Positions 11,998 to 21,157 of a stretch of DNA of 64,000 nt are shown here, piece after piece. The stretch comes from Escherichia phage Ec_Makalu_003. A program made the position numbers and the translations under genes. The stretch lies in the sequence record MN882349.1; one strand, written 5' to 3'. How positions within the stretch are numbered: the stretch's first letter is position 1; each line of letters opens with the position of its first letter. The notes beneath the pieces are model-generated. The model had not been told where the DNA came from and did not search any database. It saw nothing but the letters and a program-made list of their open reading frames with translations.

Positions 11998-12515
11998 TGA
12001 CAGAAACTAAACCTATGTTAAAATTTGTTGTTCCTGTAAAAAAATTAGAGATAAACGGGAAACATATCAAGATCCCAAAAATGGGGATTAAGCAACATCG
12101 ATTATTAAAAGATGTTCGTAGCTGTGATGAAACATTAAAGATTCTTCTTGATTCAATCTGTCCTGGGTTAAACGCTGCCGAGTCTGAATTGGTTATGCTT
12201 AACCTTTGTGCGTTTAACGGTAAGTGTCTGGAAGAAAAAGATGGTCTTAAGCTGTCTGATGTGTATATTTGTACAGAGACTGAATTTACTTTAAATGGTA
12301 AAGTCTTTAAATTTAAAAATCCAATGTATACTTCTGACCCCATTATCGATGACGCTGATTTCTTGAGTCATCATTATCACGATCCTAGTGTAGACTTCCA
12401 TGATTTCCCAGCTTTTATTATGGATTGGGCTACAGGATTAAGAAAAACTATTGCGCTGGATACACCGGAAGGTACTATCTATGGTGGAATTAACATATTG
12501 GATCGCCTATCATGA
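11997..12515 (+). CDS. 28: baseplate hub distal subunit gp28
   Basis: 172 aa, ATGA overlap with gene 27 stop, T4 synteny. Confidence 0.75.
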   Translation: MTETKPMLKFVVPVKKLEINGKHIKIPKMGIKQHRLLKDVRSCDETLKILLDSICPGLNAAESELVMLNLCAFNGKCLEEKDGLKLSDVYICTETEFTLNGKVFKFKNPMYTSDPIIDDADFLSHHYHDPSVDFHDFPAFIMDWATGLRKTIALDTPEGTIYGGINILDRLS

Positions 12516-14245
12516 ATGACGCATTAACATCATTTCGCGGGATGCGCAAGGAAGCGGAAGAAAACCCGATTGATAAACTTAACAAATTAGATAAACTTGA
12601 TTCTATTGATAATTTGCAAGCCGCGACCGAATTGGTAGCGGAGACAGTAGAACAAAAATCTAATGAAGTTGTTGGTGCGGTAGAGGATAACACCGCAGCC
12701 AACGAATTGACGGCAGAAAATACACAATCTACCGCTGGCAATACCCAAAAAACTTATGAAGAATTGCAAAAACTCAATAATTTCTCTTCTCAGATGAATG
12801 AGAAATTACGTGGTTTTGGTGTTATGATGGAACGTAGATTTGGTGTTGTCAGTAAAATGGCTAGTGGTATTGGTGCGATTGAAGAAGCACTGAAAAAACC
12901 GGAACAACCGCAAACAATGCCATCACCTCAGCCAGTTTTGCCTACTGTACCTGAACAGCCTAATAATGACAACTATCAAGGTCTTCCAAAGAAAAAACCA
13001 GATGTTGATGACCGAAAGAAAAAGAACGCCACAGATAAGCGTAATGCGGATTCTATGGAAAATCTTCTTAAAGTTGTTCGTGGAGGATTTAAAGAAACCA
13101 TAGGTATCTCTAATAAGGTCTTAGGGATGTTATTTAAGATCACTTTGACCGCTATGGCAGAAGCCGCAAAATGGGGTGCTATTTTGATGGGTATTGTTTT
13201 TGTCATTGATACCCTGATGGTTCATTTCAGATATTGGAGCGATTTATTCGAGACAAAATTCAGTGAATTTATGGATAAGGCCGGAGATTGGGCTGGTCCT
13301 ATTAGCGATATTTTAACTACTGTTCGTCAGGTTAGAGATTATTGGTCTAAAGGAGAATATAAAGAATTAATTAAATCGCTGGTTATGGGTATTGGTGATG
13401 CATTCTATAAAACCTTTATCCAACTTGATCGAATTATCACTACTGGTATTGCTAAAATTCTTCGCATGATCCCTGGTATGGGTGATTATGCCGATAATTT
13501 AGAATACGGTGCTTTAAAGTCTGCTGTTGCTAAAGGCTATAAGCCAAATGACCGAGAACTCGAATTAATGGATAAGATCGAGTCTGAACACGAAGAAGAC
13601 AAATATGGAGAGCGCACAGGATGGACAGGAAAAGCCCGTGATATTGGCGAGGCCATAGGCGAATCTATTAAAGATAAATTTAATGAAGGTCTTGTTAGTC
13701 TGGGCTGGAGAGATCAAAAGGATGTTGACGCAGAGAAACGACAAGAAGAATTAAAACGCGGGGAATACAAGTCTGTTTCTGCTGAACAACGATCTGCTAG
13801 TCGTAAACTTAAAATTAAAAGCGAGGGAGCGATCAATAATATTAATGAAGTTATGGAGAATTTGAGCGGTGACTATGACAAAGAAAGAATGGAAGAGTTG
13901 AAAAAGGATATTGATGTTTACCGTGAGCAAGTTCAAGATCCTACATTAGTTGAAAGTGATCGTTCTCAGTTAGAGCGTCTTATTGAAAAATTTGATGAGA
14001 TGTATGCTGATAAAACTAAGGGTGTGGTTCCAACTAATCCTGTTCCTGCAACTGAAACGGAAACAGCAAAACAAGCGGAACGTACTGAACAAATGCAGAA
14101 ACAAGCTGCAATCCAGCAACAAACGACAAATCAGACCTCAAACGTAAATAATACACAAATTGTAACAAACAATAGAACTATTAAACAGGGTGCACCAACA
14201 ACTAGAATTGATGCCCCCGGTACAATTAATATGGGGAACTTTTAA
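12512..14245 (+). CDS. 29: baseplate hub / tail length determining protein gp29
   Basis: 577 aa, size and position of T4 gp29. Confidence 0.8.
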   Translation: MNDALTSFRGMRKEAEENPIDKLNKLDKLDSIDNLQAATELVAETVEQKSNEVVGAVEDNTAANELTAENTQSTAGNTQKTYEELQKLNNFSSQMNEKLRGFGVMMERRFGVVSKMASGIGAIEEALKKPEQPQTMPSPQPVLPTVPEQPNNDNYQGLPKKKPDVDDRKKKNATDKRNADSMENLLKVVRGGFKETIGISNKVLGMLFKITLTAMAEAAKWGAILMGIVFVIDTLMVHFRYWSDLFETKFSEFMDKAGDWAGPISDILTTVRQVRDYWSKGEYKELIKSLVMGIGDAFYKTFIQLDRIITTGIAKILRMIPGMGDYADNLEYGALKSAVAKGYKPNDRELELMDKIESEHEEDKYGERTGWTGKARDIGEAIGESIKDKFNEGLVSLGWRDQKDVDAEKRQEELKRGEYKSVSAEQRSASRKLKIKSEGAINNINEVMENLSGDYDKERMEELKKDIDVYREQVQDPTLVESDRSQLERLIEKFDEMYADKTKGVVPTNPVPATETETAKQAERTEQMQKQAAIQQQTTNQTSNVNNTQIVTNNRTIKQGAPTTRIDAPGTINMGNF

Positions 14246-15303
14246 TGAAAATTAGTGTTATCAATGATGCCGTTGATAGCTTTAAAGCGGGGGTTAAAAC
14301 CTCCGCTGGTTTTACCTCAAAAAATAAAGGGAAAACATTAACCGCTCAATTCCCCGCTGAACGTGCTAGCGGTAATGATGCTAGCGGTTATTATATCAAC
14401 GACTTATATAATAATGGTCTGTTATTCACTGCATACGATTATACATCTCGTACTACCGGATCGTTGCGTGATTTCAGGAAAAAGAAAAATGTTGCTAGTG
14501 GTTTTGGTGGTAGCGTTAATATCGCTGGTTTTGATTTAAATTTGGGTGGAAGAAATGCTGCATTTGACCGAGAGGCAATTGCTAATATTCTTCTTCCTCG
14601 TAGTCAATCTGACGTTGACGCTGCTAGCCATAAGTTTAATGATGTTGGTGAATCTGTTATTTCTCGCGGTGGTGGTACTTTAGGGGGTGCTCTTTCTAAT
14701 ATGGCATCTACTGCCGTTTTTGGTGGTATCGAAAGTATTACTGGTGGATATCTTGCCGATCACGGTGAACAGATTTATAATACTGCTCGAAGCATGTATG
14801 CTGGTGCTGACGCACGAACTAAAAACTACGTATGGCATCTAACCCCACGTAGTATTGAAGACCTTCGCAATATTCTAATCATATACGAAACGTTTTTAGA
14901 ATTGTCTTATGGTTCTAGTGGTATTTCCAGCACCGCAAAAGAATTAAAAGCGGAAGTTGATGCGTGGTATAAAAATACACTATTGAGAAAATCCACCCCA
15001 GAGGAAGCGAAGAGAAATGATACTCTGTTTGAAGGGATCACCGATTTTCTATCAAACGTAATTACTGTATCTAACCCGACAATATGGATGATCTCTAACT
15101 TCGGCAAGCGTACATCGTTTGAAGGGCGTAGCGATGCATTTGGTCCCGCTCAGATCTCAAGTGTACGTCTGGACAAGTCGCCTGATGGTAAGTTTAATGG
15201 CCTTGCTATTTCTCCTAACTTGCCGAGTACCTTTGTTCTGGAAGTATCATTTAGAGAGATCTTGACACTTTCCCGTGGTACTATATTTGGGAGTGCGGCA
15301 TAA
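14245..15303 (+). CDS. 48: baseplate tail-tube junction protein gp48
   Basis: 352 aa, T4 synteny and size. Confidence 0.8.
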   Translation: MKISVINDAVDSFKAGVKTSAGFTSKNKGKTLTAQFPAERASGNDASGYYINDLYNNGLLFTAYDYTSRTTGSLRDFRKKKNVASGFGGSVNIAGFDLNLGGRNAAFDREAIANILLPRSQSDVDAASHKFNDVGESVISRGGGTLGGALSNMASTAVFGGIESITGGYLADHGEQIYNTARSMYAGADARTKNYVWHLTPRSIEDLRNILIIYETFLELSYGSSGISSTAKELKAEVDAWYKNTLLRKSTPEEAKRNDTLFEGITDFLSNVITVSNPTIWMISNFGKRTSFEGRSDAFGPAQISSVRLDKSPDGKFNGLAISPNLPSTFVLEVSFREILTLSRGTIFGSAA

Positions 15304-16235
15304 TGTTTGATTTAAATGACTTTAACGAACAAGCCGCTAACCTTGACTTTCAGCGATCTAACTTATTCAGCGTGGCATTTGCCACCACTCCAAGTAATAA
15401 GACACAAGCGATCCTAGAAAGTATGGGCGGTGCGGTATATGATATTATACCAAATGCATTAAATGACTATTTCGGGATTACTCGTGGTGATTATACTGAC
15501 GCATTAACAAATCTTGCTGTACAGGGTGTTAGGCGTGCTGTTGATTCATCCGGTGTCAAAAAGTATCTTTTAGGTGCAATGTCATCCCGCGTAGTTCAAT
15601 CTCTTCTGGGGCAATTTGATGTTGGTACATATGCGCTTGACTGGTTCAATATGGCATATAAGACAAGCGGTCTTCTGGTGTATGCTGTTAAGGTTCCAGA
15701 AAACAGATTGAATTATGAAATAGACCGCAACCACAATGCGCCAAACATTCGAATTACGGGACGTGATTTTGATCCGCTTGTATTGAGCTTTAGAATGGAC
15801 TCTAGCGCATCAAACTATAGAGCAATGCAGGATTGGGTTAACTCAGTAGAAGACCCCGTTACAGGGCTTCGTGCGCTTCCTGTTGACGTTGAAGCAGATA
15901 TTCAGGTTAACTTACATAACCGAATGGGAGTTCCTCACACGATCATGATGTTTAATGGTTGTGTTCCTGTTGGTGTGAGTGCACCGGAATTAACCTATGA
16001 AAATAACAACGAAATTACAACATTCGATGTTACTTTTGCGTATAGGACTATGCAAACTGGTGCTGTAGGAGAGCAAGCCGCGCGAGAATGGATTGAGGAT
16101 AAGGCAATAAACGCAATAACAAACACTTTCGGCAACAATTTACTTGATAGTGGGTTATCTGCTGCTGGTAATGCTTTATCGCGTCTAAATGGCGTCGGTG
16201 GGCGTGTGGTGAATACTGTCACTAACTGGTTCTGA
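15303..16235 (+). CDS. 54: baseplate tail-tube initiator gp54
   Basis: 310 aa, T4 synteny and size. Confidence 0.8.
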   Translation: MFDLNDFNEQAANLDFQRSNLFSVAFATTPSNKTQAILESMGGAVYDIIPNALNDYFGITRGDYTDALTNLAVQGVRRAVDSSGVKKYLLGAMSSRVVQSLLGQFDVGTYALDWFNMAYKTSGLLVYAVKVPENRLNYEIDRNHNAPNIRITGRDFDPLVLSFRMDSSASNYRAMQDWVNSVEDPVTGLRALPVDVEADIQVNLHNRMGVPHTIMMFNGCVPVGVSAPELTYENNNEITTFDVTFAYRTMQTGAVGEQAAREWIEDKAINAITNTFGNNLLDSGLSAAGNALSRLNGVGGRVVNTVTNWF

Positions 16236-16243
16236 TAAGCGAA

Positions 16244-16271
16244 AGGCGGGGGACAATCCCCCGCCTTTTTA
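16244..16271 (+). terminator. rho-independent terminator after gene 54
   Basis: AGGCGGGGGA-CAA-TCCCCCGCCT hairpin then T5. Confidence 0.75.
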
Positions 16272-16754
16272 TTTTGCTAAATCATTGCAATATTTTAGTG
16301 CCTTAGTTTGAAACTCTGCGCTGTTAAGTTCTTCATAACGGTCATAATCACCGTTTAATGCTGCCTTTCTTGCTTCTTGTTCTATCTGCATGTCAGACAT
16401 GATAATACAACGATCCCGCGATTTCATCTTCTCAAGTTGTATAGACTCTTCTTGTTGCTTGCGCAATTCTTCTTGATGCTTCTTTTCTTCTCGTGCTTTC
16501 TCTTCCCGCGCTTCTTTGATTGCATCTTTGAACATCTGCGTTTGTGGTGCTAAACCAACTTTAACGCGATCCACGTCTCGACGTTCCATTTTAGAAATAA
16601 AACATGATTCGATCTGGTCATCGCTTGCATATGCTGCTTTACATTCACGAAGCAAGAAAACCGGATCTGATTTAGCATTCATCATAGCTTCCATGTTAGT
16701 ACAACCAGTAAGCATGAATGCAGCCGCAAGACCAATCAGTTTAATCATTTTCAT
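16269..16754 (-). CDS. putative lipoprotein
   Basis: Signal peptide with LTGC lipobox, charged coiled-coil-like body, 161 aa. Confidence 0.65.
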   Translation of the reverse strand: MKMIKLIGLAAAFMLTGCTNMEAMMNAKSDPVFLLRECKAAYASDDQIESCFISKMERRDVDRVKVGLAPQTQMFKDAIKEAREEKAREEKKHQEELRKQQEESIQLEKMKSRDRCIIMSDMQIEQEARKAALNGDYDRYEELNSAEFQTKALKYCNDLAK

Positions 16755-17575
16755 TTAGTCACCTCACCGAAAATTGTAAATTGTCTACGATTCTCATCGC
16801 CGAAAGATTCTACTACGTCGTTTACCTTGATGCAAGTCCCGCGCGGTAAAATTACTTCACATTCGCAAGGATTCCATGCAATAGACCCAACAACAAAACC
16901 TTTATGATCTTTTACGTCAATTACCCATGATACATTACAAGAATGTTGCATCTTTCCGGTCATTGATTCATATCGATTCTCACAATAAAGGCTAGTGCTG
17001 TTTGAAAGCCATCCTCCAAAGATGATCGGTGTCATGCTGGTCGATACAAAGTTTTTAAAGGTAAATTCCTTATCTTCAATAATACGCTCTATTGTCTGAA
17101 TGTCAAGATGTTGACCGCGATAAAGAGTACCGTTTAACTTTTCGGTTTTATCCATGACACAATCCATCAAATCGACAATCTCTGATATCTCATCGGTCAT
17201 GTCTTCTTCCCCTAAGAGAGCACCATTTACCCATTCGTATTGTTCAGACACATAATCGCAGATTGCATTATATTCTGCTGGGGTTATGTTGTTATGTTTG
17301 TAATGTTTGAATACATTATCTCCAAAATCTTCGGAATGTACTTCATACATCACATTAATGATTTTCTTGACAAATCCATAATCTTGCGTTTCTCGCTCAA
17401 GGAAACGGATAACTTTCACGTAATCATCAAAGTTAATATGATCGCTGATCATTTCAGTGATCATGTAACCATTAATCCCCTCAATGCCATATGTTTCGAT
17501 GTAATTATCCATACGTTCCATCATTGATTCGCGTGATTCTTCGGAAAGGCGAAAATCCTGTAATTTCTTGAACAT
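16751..17575 (-). CDS. Alt-like ADP-ribosyltransferase (second, shorter paralog)
   Basis: Shares the catalytic block with the 683-aa Alt: LYRGQ, FKNFVSTS..IFGGW, ECEVILPRG (Arg / STS / ExE-type). Confidence 0.7.
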   Translation of the reverse strand: MFKKLQDFRLSEESRESMMERMDNYIETYGIEGINGYMITEMISDHINFDDYVKVIRFLERETQDYGFVKKIINVMYEVHSEDFGDNVFKHYKHNNITPAEYNAICDYVSEQYEWVNGALLGEEDMTDEISEIVDLMDCVMDKTEKLNGTLYRGQHLDIQTIERIIEDKEFTFKNFVSTSMTPIIFGGWLSNSTSLYCENRYESMTGKMQHSCNVSWVIDVKDHKGFVVGSIAWNPCECEVILPRGTCIKVNDVVESFGDENRRQFTIFGEVTK

Positions 17576-17597
17576 TTTAAATCTCCCATATAACAGA

Positions 17598-17630
17598 AAA
17601 CGGGGCTAGTATAAAACTAGTCCCCGTTTG
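17598..17630 (-). terminator. terminator hairpin downstream of alt
   Basis: ACGGGGACTAGT...ACTAGCCCCGT hairpin then U-run on minus strand. Confidence 0.55.
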
Positions 17631-17653
17631 AGTCAACCATTATTTCTTAAAAA

Positions 17654-19705
17654 TTACATTTTAAATTTATCCGGCATAGCGTCTACAGACACAAGATCAG
17701 CGATAAGCTGACGTAGAGTTGCCTTATCTGCTTTCTTACGTTCGGTTTTAGCTTCGGTAATGAAGCTGGAGAAAGACAGGTCAGAAGCAGGTTTAACAAC
17801 ACCTTCACGGATGAATGCATCACCGTCCGCGATCATCTCACCAGATTCTTGTAATGCTGCCAGTTCATTTTTGTTCATAATATGTGCCTCAATGTAATAA
17901 GTTTCTTGTGAATCCGTCGATGCCGTAGCACGAGTTACCGTATCAAAGGATAACACAACACCGCGAGGAAGTAAAATCTCGCATTCTTTGTAAGCAAATG
18001 CTTTGTTACCTACTGGCAATACAGGGATGTTTTCCGCGCCAGCAATGGAGAAAGCAACATTAGCGCCACCTTCACCGCGAGATCCAGCCATAGAATCAAC
18101 ACCAGCAACGGCACTAGCCACGTTTGCATTCCATCCACCAAAAATATTAGGTGCAAGGGAAGTGCTCACATAGTTTTTAAAGTAAAACGCTTTTTGCTTA
18201 CGTGCAGTTTCCCACATTTGAGAACGGAAGTCCATACCACGATACAAGATAGTACCTGGATCAAGTTTAACACCATAGTTAGCAAATGCGTTATCCAGTG
18301 CATCACACATCTTGACCAATTCTTCTGGGTCTGCGATGCCTTCAAACTCTTCCAGCTTACGGTCGGTTAGGAAGTTGTTCATATTGATGTATGCTGCATC
18401 CGCATATTCGCTCAACACAAAACCTTCCGCGCCAGGCAGATCAAGATCAATATCTGCCATCATTTCACCCATGTTGCTAGCAATTGCTTCAAACATACCG
18501 GAAGCAACATTACGCAGGGCATCGGTTTTAATCTGCGTGATGTGACTACGCAGCATTTCAGCTTTTACATCTGCTGGCATAGACTGGTCGACGCGATCCA
18601 TTGCCAGGGCGGTGATCTTGTTTTCGAATACTTCCTCGCTCATGATTTCTTTTAAGCGTTTGATTGATGCTGCGATAACTTCCGCAGACAACGGATCATA
18701 TTGATCCTGAACTTTTACCAGTTCGCTTACTGCATATTTTGCATCGGCTTCGCTTTCAAAAATAGTACGCATGAAACCATAGCGAGTGATAATATCACTT
18801 GTCCAGTCATTCAGAGAACGGGCGGTTGAACGTTCTAAGGCTTGACGGTCAATCAGAGTATTAAACTGTTTCTTAGGTTCTGCTTCGGTGATATCTTCTT
18901 CCGGTTTAAGATTAATTTTTTCTGGATGATTCACATAGTCGCTGTTATAGGTCGCTTGAGTTTTCAGCATTTCTTCTTTAGTCAAACGAGATTTAGCCGC
19001 TACGCGTTGTTCTGCTTCCGCGTTTCGTTCTTCTTCCGACACAAGACTAGCCGCATACGCCTCATCTTTAGTCAGAGATTCACCAGTAGCCTTAGATACC
19101 CAGCGATCACCTAAATCACTTTCTACTTTAGTGAACAGGGATTCATCGAGTTTAATCCCTTTAATCTTATCAATCGCCATCCCGCGACGTTTGACAACAA
19201 CTAAAGCGATCTTTTTGCTGGTCATTACTTCCTGCTGGAATACTTCAAACTTCGGTGTACGACGCACCAAACGCTCTATAACGCGCTTAACCAGTTCGGT
19301 CTTACCTTTCATGCGGGATACGTTAAAACGGAACATAACAGCGTCTAATTGCGCTTTACGGGCTGTTTCCATGACCACATCAAAAGCACTTGACATAACT
19401 GCAATCGGGTTATCTCCTAGACCATTTTTAAGCTGTACAATACGACCGCTTTTGTTCATTTCGCACAGTACAACATGTGCGGTCTTGTCACCCATACGAA
19501 TGATTTTAGGTGTTTTGTTGGTGAAGTTACAAAGACGGACAATCACATCTTTATCGCGTGTCTGTACTGCAAAAAGCTGTTTAGGATTCTGCTTAGGCTT
19601 TAAGCACTGTACCGGAGCAATACTGCCAAAGTTTTCTTCCTCTTCCGTCAACAGCCATTTCTCGAAAGATTCAATCATTAGATCGTCGATTTCTAAGTTA
19701 AACAT
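17654..19705 (-). CDS. alt: Alt ADP-ribosyltransferase
   Basis: 683 aa (T4 Alt is about 680), C-terminal ART motifs YRG, VSTS, ECE; position after gene 54. Confidence 0.85.
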   Translation of the reverse strand: MFNLEIDDLMIESFEKWLLTEEEENFGSIAPVQCLKPKQNPKQLFAVQTRDKDVIVRLCNFTNKTPKIIRMGDKTAHVVLCEMNKSGRIVQLKNGLGDNPIAVMSSAFDVVMETARKAQLDAVMFRFNVSRMKGKTELVKRVIERLVRRTPKFEVFQQEVMTSKKIALVVVKRRGMAIDKIKGIKLDESLFTKVESDLGDRWVSKATGESLTKDEAYAASLVSEEERNAEAEQRVAAKSRLTKEEMLKTQATYNSDYVNHPEKINLKPEEDITEAEPKKQFNTLIDRQALERSTARSLNDWTSDIITRYGFMRTIFESEADAKYAVSELVKVQDQYDPLSAEVIAASIKRLKEIMSEEVFENKITALAMDRVDQSMPADVKAEMLRSHITQIKTDALRNVASGMFEAIASNMGEMMADIDLDLPGAEGFVLSEYADAAYINMNNFLTDRKLEEFEGIADPEELVKMCDALDNAFANYGVKLDPGTILYRGMDFRSQMWETARKQKAFYFKNYVSTSLAPNIFGGWNANVASAVAGVDSMAGSRGEGGANVAFSIAGAENIPVLPVGNKAFAYKECEILLPRGVVLSFDTVTRATASTDSQETYYIEAHIMNKNELAALQESGEMIADGDAFIREGVVKPASDLSFSSFITEAKTERKKADKATLRQLIADLVSVDAMPDKFKM

Positions 19706-19772
19706 TTTATATCCTCTAGTTGATAACCTATAAACCTATATTTATGAAAAAGGGGCTTAACACCCCCATTTA

Positions 19773-20297: not shown

Positions 20298-20304
20298 CAA
20301 CTTT

Positions 20305-20823
20305 TTAGTTATTTTTTAATTGCTCATCTTGCAATAATGCAATCACATGCTGGCGATGTTCTTCCGATTGAGGAACACCGAAAAAGTTTGTTTTGTAGAA
20401 ATACTCTAATCGGTCTTCTCGTGTGCTCTCTTCCATCATGATCGCGGGTAGTCCAAGATTTCGGAAACGTCGCTTTTCTGCTGGCGTAAAATCACTGTAA
20501 TACAACATAGAATCATCATTACCAGCAATGCTAAACTCATCCTTCATAAAGGAGAATATTGCGTTTAAACGCTGTTTACCGTCCACGATTTCGATCTCAT
20601 AGCGAGAGCCATCATCAATCTTAGCCATTGCGATAGCACCAACCGGAAAATCATTAATCAGGTTTTCGATAAACATACGTTTGTTTTCGGTGTCCCATAC
20701 CAAAGGACGCTGATAATCTGGGTTCATGTTGATATAGCCATCTTCTAACCACGCCTCATAAACAGAGATGACAAAGTTTTTAGTATTGGTATAGTAACGG
20801 CGTTTAGGCGTTAAACGGTTCAT
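20305..20823 (-). CDS. DUF262 (ParB/Srx-fold, GmrSD N-terminal-like) protein
   Basis: DYQRPLVWD...EIVDGKQRLNAI resembles the DUF262 motif (DGQQR); ATG at 20823 with AGGAG RBS. Confidence 0.6.
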   Translation of the reverse strand: MNRLTPKRRYYTNTKNFVISVYEAWLEDGYINMNPDYQRPLVWDTENKRMFIENLINDFPVGAIAMAKIDDGSRYEIEIVDGKQRLNAIFSFMKDEFSIAGNDDSMLYYSDFTPAEKRRFRNLGLPAIMMEESTREDRLEYFYKTNFFGVPQSEEHRQHVIALLQDEQLKNN

Positions 20824-20824
20824 G

Positions 20825-21157
20825 TTATAGTCTCCTGAATGGATCATCACGTAAATCAATATCTTTTAAGAACTCATCCCATGAATGGCGGATAATGTTC
20901 TTAATTCTCCAGATAAGCGCAGGGATTGAACGCTCTCCCATCTGGAAGTAAGGATCATATGATCCATATGCCCAATATGCTACTACAATTCCACAATCGG
21001 CGCAATAATATTCTATTTCACTTGCTGGCGACCAAAGTCCATCAATATGATCACGGATCTTGCTTTCGATGTTATGGCTATGGCAATCAGGGCAACGGAT
21101 GCAATGACCTTGTTTATCGTAATTTGACGTTAGCGAATACTTAAACAATCTCATCAT
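20825..21157 (-). CDS. Cys/His-rich zinc-finger protein, possible HNH-like nuclease
   Basis: CIRCPDCHSHN...RDHIDG...CADCG: two CxxC pairs flanking His/Asp residues. Confidence 0.45.
   Translation of the reverse strand: MMRLFKYSLTSNYDKQGHCIRCPDCHSHNIESKIRDHIDGLWSPASEIEYYCADCGIVVAYWAYGSYDPYFQMGERSIPALIWRIKNIIRHSWDEFLKDIDLRDDPFRRL

Follow-up and report, generated by a model that had tools for sequence, protein, structure and literature searches.

The DNA analysed here is a window of 64,000 nucleotides (nt) from Escherichia phage Ec_Makalu_003 (sequence record MN882349.1; one strand, 5′ to 3′), and the subject is a pair of adjacent minus-strand genes within it, the first encoding a 274-amino acid (aa) protein related to the ADP-ribosyltransferase (ART) Alt of phage T4 (here the short ART) and the second a 161-aa predicted lipoprotein. 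DNA of the ~1.7-kb locus is 99.8% identical to Escherichia phage Ec_Makalu_002, identifying the phage as a Krischvirus (RB49-like T4-type coliphage), and 97% identical to RB49, Phi1, GEC-3S, JSE and ~50 other Krischvirus genomes. The locus corresponds to the T4 ‘alt to gp54’ region, with gp28, gp29, gp48 and gp54 in that order on the plus strand and alt, the short ART gene and the small lipoprotein open reading frame (orf) on the minus strand, converging on gp54 (Table 1).

Identity of the first gene as an ART is not new, because it has been annotated as an alt paralogue since the RB49 genome. The RB49 copy (RB49p183/ORF183c) is ‘similar to C-terminal part of T4 Alt’ in the deposited annotation, and RB49ORF183c, 44RRORF188c and T4 alt.-1/alt.-2 were grouped as alt paralogous duplications by Nolan et al. 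2006 (PMC1524935); the T4T record gives alt.-1 and alt.-2 as broken remnants of a second alt copy. The RefSeq name of the Krischvirus short ART gene is ‘ADP-ribosyltransferase’, while the downstream orf is a ‘putative lipoprotein’ in one record and its KFS-EC homologue is listed as ‘Lipoprotein’ in UniProt. The descriptive core of the locus is thus not new, and the finding is real and mostly ordinary. What is added here is evidence for an early, core-only and strongly constrained ART behind a promoter-early stem-loop (PeSL), and for cassette exchange of the lipoprotein.

Table 1 Positions of genes and sequence elements between gp54 and alt in the Ec_Makalu_003 window.
Feature	Position	Strand	Basis
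gp54, baseplate tail-tube initiator; convergent neighbour, syntenic context only	15303..16235	+	annotation of matching records
Bidirectional intrinsic terminator, lipoprotein gene/gp54	16241..16269	both	13-bp stem, 8 GC pairs, T-runs on both strands
Lipoprotein gene, 161 aa; mature part predicted all-helical; invariant C38, C51, C116, C156	16269..16754	-	phrog_16112; AlphaFold2 (AF2) model
Exchangeable cassette encoding the mature lipoprotein domain	16272..16700	-	DNA identity profile
Lipoprotein signal peptide and lipobox, codons 1-18, MKMIKLIGLAAAFMLTGC; conserved 5′ recombination ‘handle’	16701..16754	-	protein alignments
Short Alt-paralogue ADP-ribosyltransferase, 274 aa; R153 / S178-T179-S180 / E238-x-E240	16751..17575	-	PF03496, phrog_15144
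Shine-Dalgarno GGGAG of the short ART	17583..17587	-	read from sequence
PeSL-type composite element between alt and short ART: A-rich stretch, -35, stem-loop, -10, T-run	17595..17650	-	promoter scan and RNA fold
alt, full-length 683-aa Alt-like ADP-ribosyltransferase; upstream paralogue	17654..19705	-	phrog_802 over 16-683, E 1e-179; PF03496
CATAAATA, late-promoter-like box, 41 nt upstream of alt ATG	19739..19746	-	sequence scan; putative function

The short ART and its relatives

The short ART scored 58.1 bits against Pfam PF03496 (ADPrib_exo_Tox; residues 82–266; gathering cut-off 23.4 bits), matched phrog_15144 (‘ADP-ribosyltransferase’) end to end (1–274) and aligned through residues 9–268 to positions 331–602 of the 674-position Alt PHROG profile. 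It carries FTFKNFVSTSMTPIIFGGW and CECEVILPRG, the 683-aa Alt encoded upstream carrying FYFKNYVSTSLAPNIFGGW and KECEILLPRG. R153, S178-T179-S180, E238 and E240 are invariant in an alignment with T4 Alt, the co-resident Alt and homologues (nine sequences, down to 22% identity), and the catalytic motifs are retained in the more distant homologues L012–L016 (40–63% identity). The initial annotation had read this orf as a second, short Alt-like ART that shares the catalytic block of the 683-aa protein and lacks its long N-terminal region, a reading that both the profile matches and the alignments bear out; no catalytic residue is lost on alignment with Alt and with the homologues.

T4 Alt itself is the head-packaged enzyme that ADP-ribosylates Arg265 of RNA polymerase alpha (Alt/VIP2 family, PF03496). 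The short ART shares with it the R / STS / ExE residues and the FxFKNxVSTS..P.IFGGW block, is 31% identical to it over 181 aa and is encoded directly downstream of alt; the co-resident 683-aa Alt is 27% identical to T4 Alt over its full length. Unlike Alt, the short ART has 274 rather than ~683 residues and, in alignments with both T4 Alt and the co-resident Alt, lacks two parts of the architecture of Alt proper, ~330 aa at the N-terminus and ~85 aa at the C-terminus, the latter with the conserved ...MPxKF tail. It also has its own ARTT (‘WNP..ExE’) and PN-loop (‘GGW..NSTSLYCENRY’) regions. These conform to signatures of the short ART family, (S/A)WNP..ExE in the ARTT loop and GGW..NSTS(L/M)(Y/F)CE in the PN-loop region, both unlike Alt, which suggests one or more conserved cytoplasmic host targets peculiar to this family.

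The AF2 model of the short ART (predicted local distance difference test, pLDDT, 82.4; predicted template modelling score, pTM, 0.80) gave Vis, Certhrax, C3bot, CDTa and iota-Ia as best Foldseek matches in the PDB (E 1e-10 to 1e-8, probability 1.00). Sequence comparison with solved structures gave marginal matches at best (Tre1, E = 0.06; SpvB; Vis). No signal peptide is present. Taken at the level of sequence and predicted fold, the short ART is probably an active, arginine-specific (R-S-ExE) mono-ART derived from an ancient duplication of alt, without the two Alt-specific extensions.

Across 58 Krischvirus phages the frame is intact in every genome and the protein is at least 97.8% identical (97.8–100%). 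Ratios of nonsynonymous to synonymous substitution (dN/dS) in comparisons of the window, RB49 and GEC-3S are 0–0.03 for the short ART, 0.02–0.04 for alt, 0.04–0.05 for gp54 and 0.12–0.23 for the lipoprotein. The idea that the gene is what remains of a second alt copy undergoing decay, suggested by its position in the slot of T4 alt.-1/alt.-2, is effectively refuted by this conservation, by a dN/dS as low as those of alt and gp54, by catalytic residues retained at 40% identity and by the gene having its own promoter and Shine-Dalgarno sequence.

Second alt copies occupy the same alt–gp54 slot in other phages (T2 tandem alt; T4 alt.-1/alt.-2; 44RR ORF187c/188c), with differences from the arrangement seen here. 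T2 has two full-length alts in tandem, the second of 685 aa, which abut with no intergenic regulatory element and are followed by alt.-3 and gp54, whereas in T4 the second copy is broken by frameshift. In both T4 and T2 the gene downstream is alt.-3, not a lipoprotein gene. Two Alt paralogues of intermediate length were also found on T4-like contigs of 166 kb and 29 kb (P0056, 415 aa, and P0057, 316 aa, respectively); the N-terminus of Alt is mostly missing from both, but its C-terminal tail (…DGD.L.ETG…KFxM), absent from the Krischvirus short ART, is retained, and the two could help to map the segment of Alt needed for packaging.

The early, non-packaged ARTs of T4, ModA and ModB, resemble the short ART in their R-S-ExE residues and in having no packaging regions, and its own expression is predicted, from the PeSL promoter, to be early; they differ in length (200–207 aa compared with 274 aa), and the short ART is clearly derived from Alt. 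By sequence it is not a member of the Mod family: identity to ModA and ModB is 13–19% in a multiple alignment, tblastn with either protein misses the short ART gene, and its PHROG matches are all Alt-type. RB49 encodes one ModB-like gene, RB49p014 (L008, 8917–9420), with a 167-aa product, compared with 200–207 aa for T4 ModA and ModB, and a weak match to T4 ModB (33% over 113 aa, E = 1e-7; no Pfam match); a ModA counterpart was not detected anywhere in the complete RB49 genome. With one ModB-like gene and no detectable ModA, the RB49 total is three ARTs, as in T4, and the Alt-derived short ART is probably one of two early ARTs in the phage.

Transcription signals and packaging

The 78-nt interval between alt and the short ART gene (minus strand ...AAGAAATAATGGTTGACTCAAACGGGGACTAGTTTTATACTAGCCCCGTTTTCTGTTATATGGGAGATTTAAAATG) contains a PeSL-type element. 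Its -35 sequence, GTTGACT (TTGACT, 17636–17631), is followed by a 17-nt spacer and a -10 sequence, TATACT (17613–17608), with 10/12 matches in the promoter scan. An 11-bp stem (stem-loop at 17628–17599), with the -10 in the loop and 3′ arm, precedes a T-run, and the RNA fold has an energy of -20.6 kcal/mol (z = -3.2). Three metagenomic relatives, in which the short ART is no more than 42–63% identical, keep this architecture upstream of the gene; the alignment shows two compensatory base-pair changes, and 97.7% of its cells are paired, compared with 34–57% when the register is slid. In a fourth relative, L013, the spacer is shortened and there is no hairpin upstream of the short ART.

PeSLs of RB49 and phi1 acted as strong sigma70-type promoters and effective terminators in reporter fusions (PMC2839356; PMC4122927) and have been described by Arbiol et al. 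2010 and Comeau et al. 2014. The element between alt and the short ART has every component of these: an AT-rich stretch, sigma70-like -35 and -10 sequences, a stem-loop overlapping the -10, a Shine-Dalgarno sequence and an ATG, in an intergenic position on the early strand. Agreement extends to the consensus published for early promoters of RB49 (PMC1524935), in that position -33 is G and the sequence upstream is A-rich. The stem is not of the common GGGGATCGGCGATCCCC type.

The window contains 17 copies of the pattern GTTGAC-N17-19-TAnAnT, every one on the minus (early-gene) strand, compared with 0.4 expected in shuffles. Copies lie at 20298, 22430, 22674, 25957, 27102, 38017 and 61145, with 10 further sites, and several have the GGGGATCGGCGATCCCC hairpin in the spacer. 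In five the spacers carry almost the same palindrome, GGGGATCGG(C/T)GATCCCC, and the leaders that come after it (…CACACATACCGAAACGAA…GGAGAATCAAA ATG) are also almost the same. These cassettes are known elements (Arbiol et al. 2010) and are very prominent in the window.

Signals at alt are of another kind, with a late-type box in place of the early-type PeSL promoter of the short ART. A terminator (19751–19767) directly precedes the CATAAATA box, which is the sole [CT]ATAAATA within 16–20 kb. The canonical box, TATAAATA, occurs seven times in the window, in each case 20–50 nt upstream of a start codon, with none at 16–20 kb and none upstream of the short ART. CATAAATA in place of TATAAATA may represent a weaker or variant late promoter. 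Late expression is expected of alt because packaging requires it. The late expression of Alt proper does not appear to extend to the short ART, which has an early-type PeSL where a TATAAATA-type box would stand. On these signals we infer that alt is late and that its transcript stops in the PeSL, with the short ART and lipoprotein genes forming an early two-gene operon that would end at the bidirectional terminator before gp54, a terminator also annotated in GEC-3S and Makalu_002.

The missing Alt extensions, the early promoter and a non-conserved N-terminus together make packaging of the short ART unlikely, and with reasonable though far from full confidence we regard the enzyme as synthesised in the cell shortly after infection and left out of the virion. 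Packaging and injection in the manner of Alt, as a second virion-borne enzyme, would suit the ‘second alt’ slot, occupied in T2 by a full-length and presumably packaged copy, and the N-terminus of the short ART, MFKKLQDFRLSE, loosely resembles the T4 internal-protein capsid-targeting sequence MKTYQEFIAE. Phage ARTs in the genomic context of T4 alt are also generally taken to be head-packaged (PMC9503650). This remains improbable here, however, with both Alt-specific extensions absent and the gene lying behind a terminator and an early promoter with no late box. A regular-expression scan of the window and RB49 1–125 kb (~75% of the genome) found no other orf with a MFKKLQDFRLSE-like N-terminus, and the motif is not conserved in the short ARTs of L012–L016; a capsid-targeting role for MFKKLQDFRLSE was dropped on these two grounds. 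The earlier suggestion that the shorter enzyme may have a different localisation or role fits with the absence of the Alt extensions, a predicted sigma70-type early promoter/terminator cassette of its own and the family signature WNP..ExE in the ARTT loop.

The lipoprotein and its exchangeable cassette

The stop codon of the short ART gene overlaps the start of the lipoprotein gene in a 4-nt ATGA (16751–16754; minus strand ...ACT AAA TGA in one frame and ATG AAA ATG... in the other), as the initial annotation had it, and a Shine-Dalgarno sequence, GAGGTGA, lies upstream of the lipoprotein ATG. The N-terminus has a basic n-region and a hydrophobic core leading to the proposed LTGC lipobox, MKMIKLIGLAAAFM-L15-T16-G17-C18. 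The lipobox Cys is invariant in all family members, which show LTGC, LNGC, INGC, LVGC, LFGC and MTGC variants, and +2 is occupied by T, A or S in every allele, never by Asp. In E. coli, lipoproteins without Asp at +2 are sorted to the outer membrane under the Lol rule, and outer-membrane sorting is therefore predicted. Export and lipid modification at Cys18 are likely from these features.

Besides the lipobox Cys, the four cysteines given in Table 1 are invariant across alleles of 25–45% identity, which suggests two periplasmic disulfides. The AF2 model (pLDDT 86.6) is all-helical, with a charged helix of ~60 residues (72–133) in which length variation among homologues is concentrated. In one 172-aa homologue (P0032) an 11-residue insertion resembling a tandem duplication (EEESRKENKHQ) lies in this helix, the length of which is apparently free to vary.

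Outside its own family the lipoprotein has no relatives by sequence or fold. It matches phrog_16112, which carries no assigned function, over its full length; a word-indexed search gave 41 clusters, all on contigs of T4-type-phage size or fragments; and an exhaustive profile search of 1.84 billion protein representatives returned 10 cluster representatives, all of the same family. Pfam, NCBIfam and PHROGs gave only sub-threshold matches outside that family, mostly to the signal-peptide region, and Foldseek against BFVD found the family alone.

Both genes are present in 58/58 Krischvirus records, and their linkage extends to the five most distant lipoprotein homologues, all on metagenomic contigs, in each of which (5/5) the lipoprotein gene directly follows a 271–282-aa PF03496 orf and converges on gp54. 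One of these contigs is short and includes only the C-terminal end of the ART orf, with ECE...SRG; alt lies upstream of the ART where contigs reach far enough. Presence in all records and purifying selection argue that neither orf is a chance one, and the lipoprotein orf, the translation of which had been open to doubt, appears to be a genuine, translated gene.

The lipoprotein falls into at least three allele classes, a window/RB49 type (50 records), a Whisky/JK32 type and an 011D4 type. Identity between classes is 31–34%, or 49% between the Whisky/JK32 and 011D4 types, while the short ART is 98–100% identical in the same comparison. DNA identity is 97–100% through alt and the short ART gene and drops to ~40–50% at ~16710, recovering at the stop codon/terminator in 011D4, where the terminator forms the 3′ boundary of the cassette, or ~150 nt into the 3′ end of gp54 in Whisky and JK32. 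The 5′ junction lies after codon 18 in Whisky and after approximately codon 11 in JK32 and 011D4, and these differing junctions point to several independent exchanges with the signal-peptide coding sequence as homology arm. In this the exchange differs from the PeSLs of RB49 and phi1, since the signal-peptide coding sequence, and not the PeSL, is the 5′ junction. The Whisky lipoprotein is 38% identical to that of the distant lineage L013 and 34% identical to the window allele, and the alleles are therefore likely to be old.

Changes in Whisky are not confined to the cassette. The gp29 tape-measure/hub gene is annotated there as two orfs (370 and 178 aa; L005, 6517–8195) compared with one 577-aa orf in the window (12512–14245), and its gp54 is 87% identical to the window version (99% for 011D4). 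The baseplate block adjacent to the cassette is therefore also mosaic in the Whisky lineage.

Possible roles of the lipoprotein

The scheme that we favour, at a probability of about 0.5, has an early ART operon and an exported, cassette-exchanged lipoprotein. The ‘second alt’ slot, flanked by alt and gp54, would house an early operon of two genes that is complete in itself, with the PeSL stem-loop ending late alt transcription and the embedded sigma70-type promoter driving early expression of the short ART and lipoprotein. The short ART would act early in the cytoplasm, ModA/ModB-like in timing, on its own host target or targets. Translation of the lipoprotein would be coupled to that of the ART by the overlap, and the product would be exported, lipidated at Cys18 and sorted to the outer membrane, where it would have a periplasmic helical fold, probably with two disulfides. 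Its mature domain would be swapped among phages, with homology arms provided on one side by the signal-peptide coding sequence and on the other by the terminator or gp54, and such cassette exchange would fit a conflict at the level of the envelope. ART and lipoprotein would thus be co-regulated ‘first-minutes’ takeover functions in different compartments, not an enzyme/inhibitor pair.

Within this scheme, exclusion of, or interference with, other infecting phages is the likeliest role for the lipoprotein, though one we put at clearly less than even odds; superinfection exclusion, one of the two roles raised initially, is plausible. Predicted early expression, the outer-membrane signal and the extreme allelic diversity are consistent with it, as is the apparent absence of Imm and Sp: no homologue of either T4 protein was detected in the complete RB49 genome, which may leave room for a lineage-specific exclusion factor and proves nothing. 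More tentatively, the lipoprotein could be the founder of a new protein family with which T4-type phages conduct conflicts at the envelope, superinfection exclusion or interference being the likeliest function, in which ancient mature-domain alleles are swapped via signal-peptide and terminator handles and long kept in an early operon with a dedicated, non-packaged, Alt-derived ART.

Several observations weigh against the scheme or against an exclusion role within it. The lipoprotein resembles none of Llp, Cor, TraT and Spackle. The PHROG for Cor (phrog_1119) matches it only below threshold (E = 0.008) over residues 1–45, mostly signal peptide, and Foldseek found no match in the PDB (best E = 0.77). 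The model itself rests on only 10 sequences and has a pTM of 0.53. In 58 records, lipoprotein allele is not associated with gp38 adhesin class, and all 58 phages share a gp5 of at least 98.8% identity. For the operon, the PeSL copies tested experimentally in the publication do not include that between alt and the short ART, and read-through of the late alt transcript could still yield late expression of the short ART. Searchable literature yielded no transcript, virion-proteome or enzymatic reports on the ART/lipoprotein pair, and nothing specific was found there on the Krischvirus lipoprotein, on exclusion or on short ART virion proteomics.

The closest models for exclusion are T5 Llp and Cor of phi80, N15 and T1-like phages, which like the protein described here are phage-encoded lipoproteins with a residue other than Asp at +2; the Krischvirus lipoprotein is predicted to be early and belongs to a virulent phage. 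The differences are that homology is limited to the N-terminal ~45 residues, with no PDB fold match, that the gene is not adjacent to that for the receptor-binding protein and that its allele is independent of gp38 type. Llp/Cor-like masking of the phage’s own receptor would predict that the allele tracks the adhesin, and it does not. Divergent alleles occur with RB49-type gp38 (AV108, 98%; PTE-Eco09, 96%; Whisky, 95%) and with GEC-3S-type gp38 (JK32, 011D4, E26 and PHB13, 80–84%), and the common allele occurs with both types; receptor-matched exclusion was rejected on this basis. T4 Spackle (Sp), the periplasmic inhibitor of the gp5 tail lysozyme, is likewise small, exported, helical, Cys-containing and early, and RB49 has no detectable sp or imm, but the two proteins have no sequence or Foldseek similarity and the Krischvirus protein is predicted to be lipid-anchored. 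Diversity of the lipoprotein cannot be put down to gp5, which hardly varies in the genus, and a Spackle-like gp5 inhibitor, for which there was also no tblastn or fold match, was rejected.

The lipoprotein might instead have some other function in the envelope, as a periplasm-spanning tether or stabiliser, in lysis timing or inhibition, or as a counter to host envelope-associated defence, its diversity then reflecting variation of a host partner or escape from host recognition. Lack of covariation with gp38 or gp5 would suit this tentative alternative, as would the ~60-residue charged helix of the model, which is its most length-variable region, and the lack of similarity to any known exclusion protein. 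Against it, RB49 has its spanins (pseT.2/pseT.3), holin t and rI at other loci, no positive evidence points to a specific partner, and predicted early expression suits exclusion at least as well. The lipoprotein was rejected as a spanin itself: pseT.3/pseT.2 of RB49 lie at the canonical locus (lipobox ALSSC), and the lipoprotein has neither a C-terminal transmembrane domain nor a partner, the upstream gene being the ART.

Immunity to the ART, the other role that the initial annotation had raised, would make the two genes a toxin/immunity pair with the lipoprotein neutralising the enzyme, an arrangement for which tight, translationally coupled linkage across deep divergence and the identity of the closest solved sequence relative, the type VI secretion system effector Tre1 (which has a cognate immunity protein, though the match is only E = 0.06), might be cited. 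It is very unlikely because the proteins would be in different compartments, the ART having no signal peptide and requiring NAD+, which is cytoplasmic, and the lipoprotein having a canonical lipobox and four invariant Cys suggestive of periplasmic disulfides; moreover, the lipoprotein drops to ~30% identity while the ART stays at 98–100%, the opposite of what is expected of co-evolving binding partners.

Elsewhere in the window, a 184-aa orf (20305–20859, minus strand) carries a stand-alone GmrSD_N domain (DUF262, ParB-like; Pfam E = 5e-20, 72.9 bits, cut-off 33.2); two genes downstream of it the Ec_Makalu_002 annotation has a ‘putative C-5 cytosine DNA methylase’. The N-terminal half of a type IV restriction enzyme is curious in a phage that uses unmodified cytosine DNA.

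As an annotated Alt paralogue, the short ART alone adds little. A single lineage nevertheless holds a late, probably packaged Alt beside an early, core-only Alt derivative, a natural comparison for separating the parts of Alt that serve packaging from those that serve target choice. The lipoprotein is the more useful lead of the two genes, being one of very few strongly polymorphic genes in a genus in which the proteins compared, neighbours and core (alt, short ART, gp5), are ~98–100% identical. Phage-therapy or biocontrol studies were the source of several matching isolates, and should the lipoprotein control exclusion or interactions at the envelope, it would bear on the design of cocktails with Krischvirus therapy phages. 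If exclusion is indeed its role, the few exclusion factors known from virulent phages would be joined by a new protein family.

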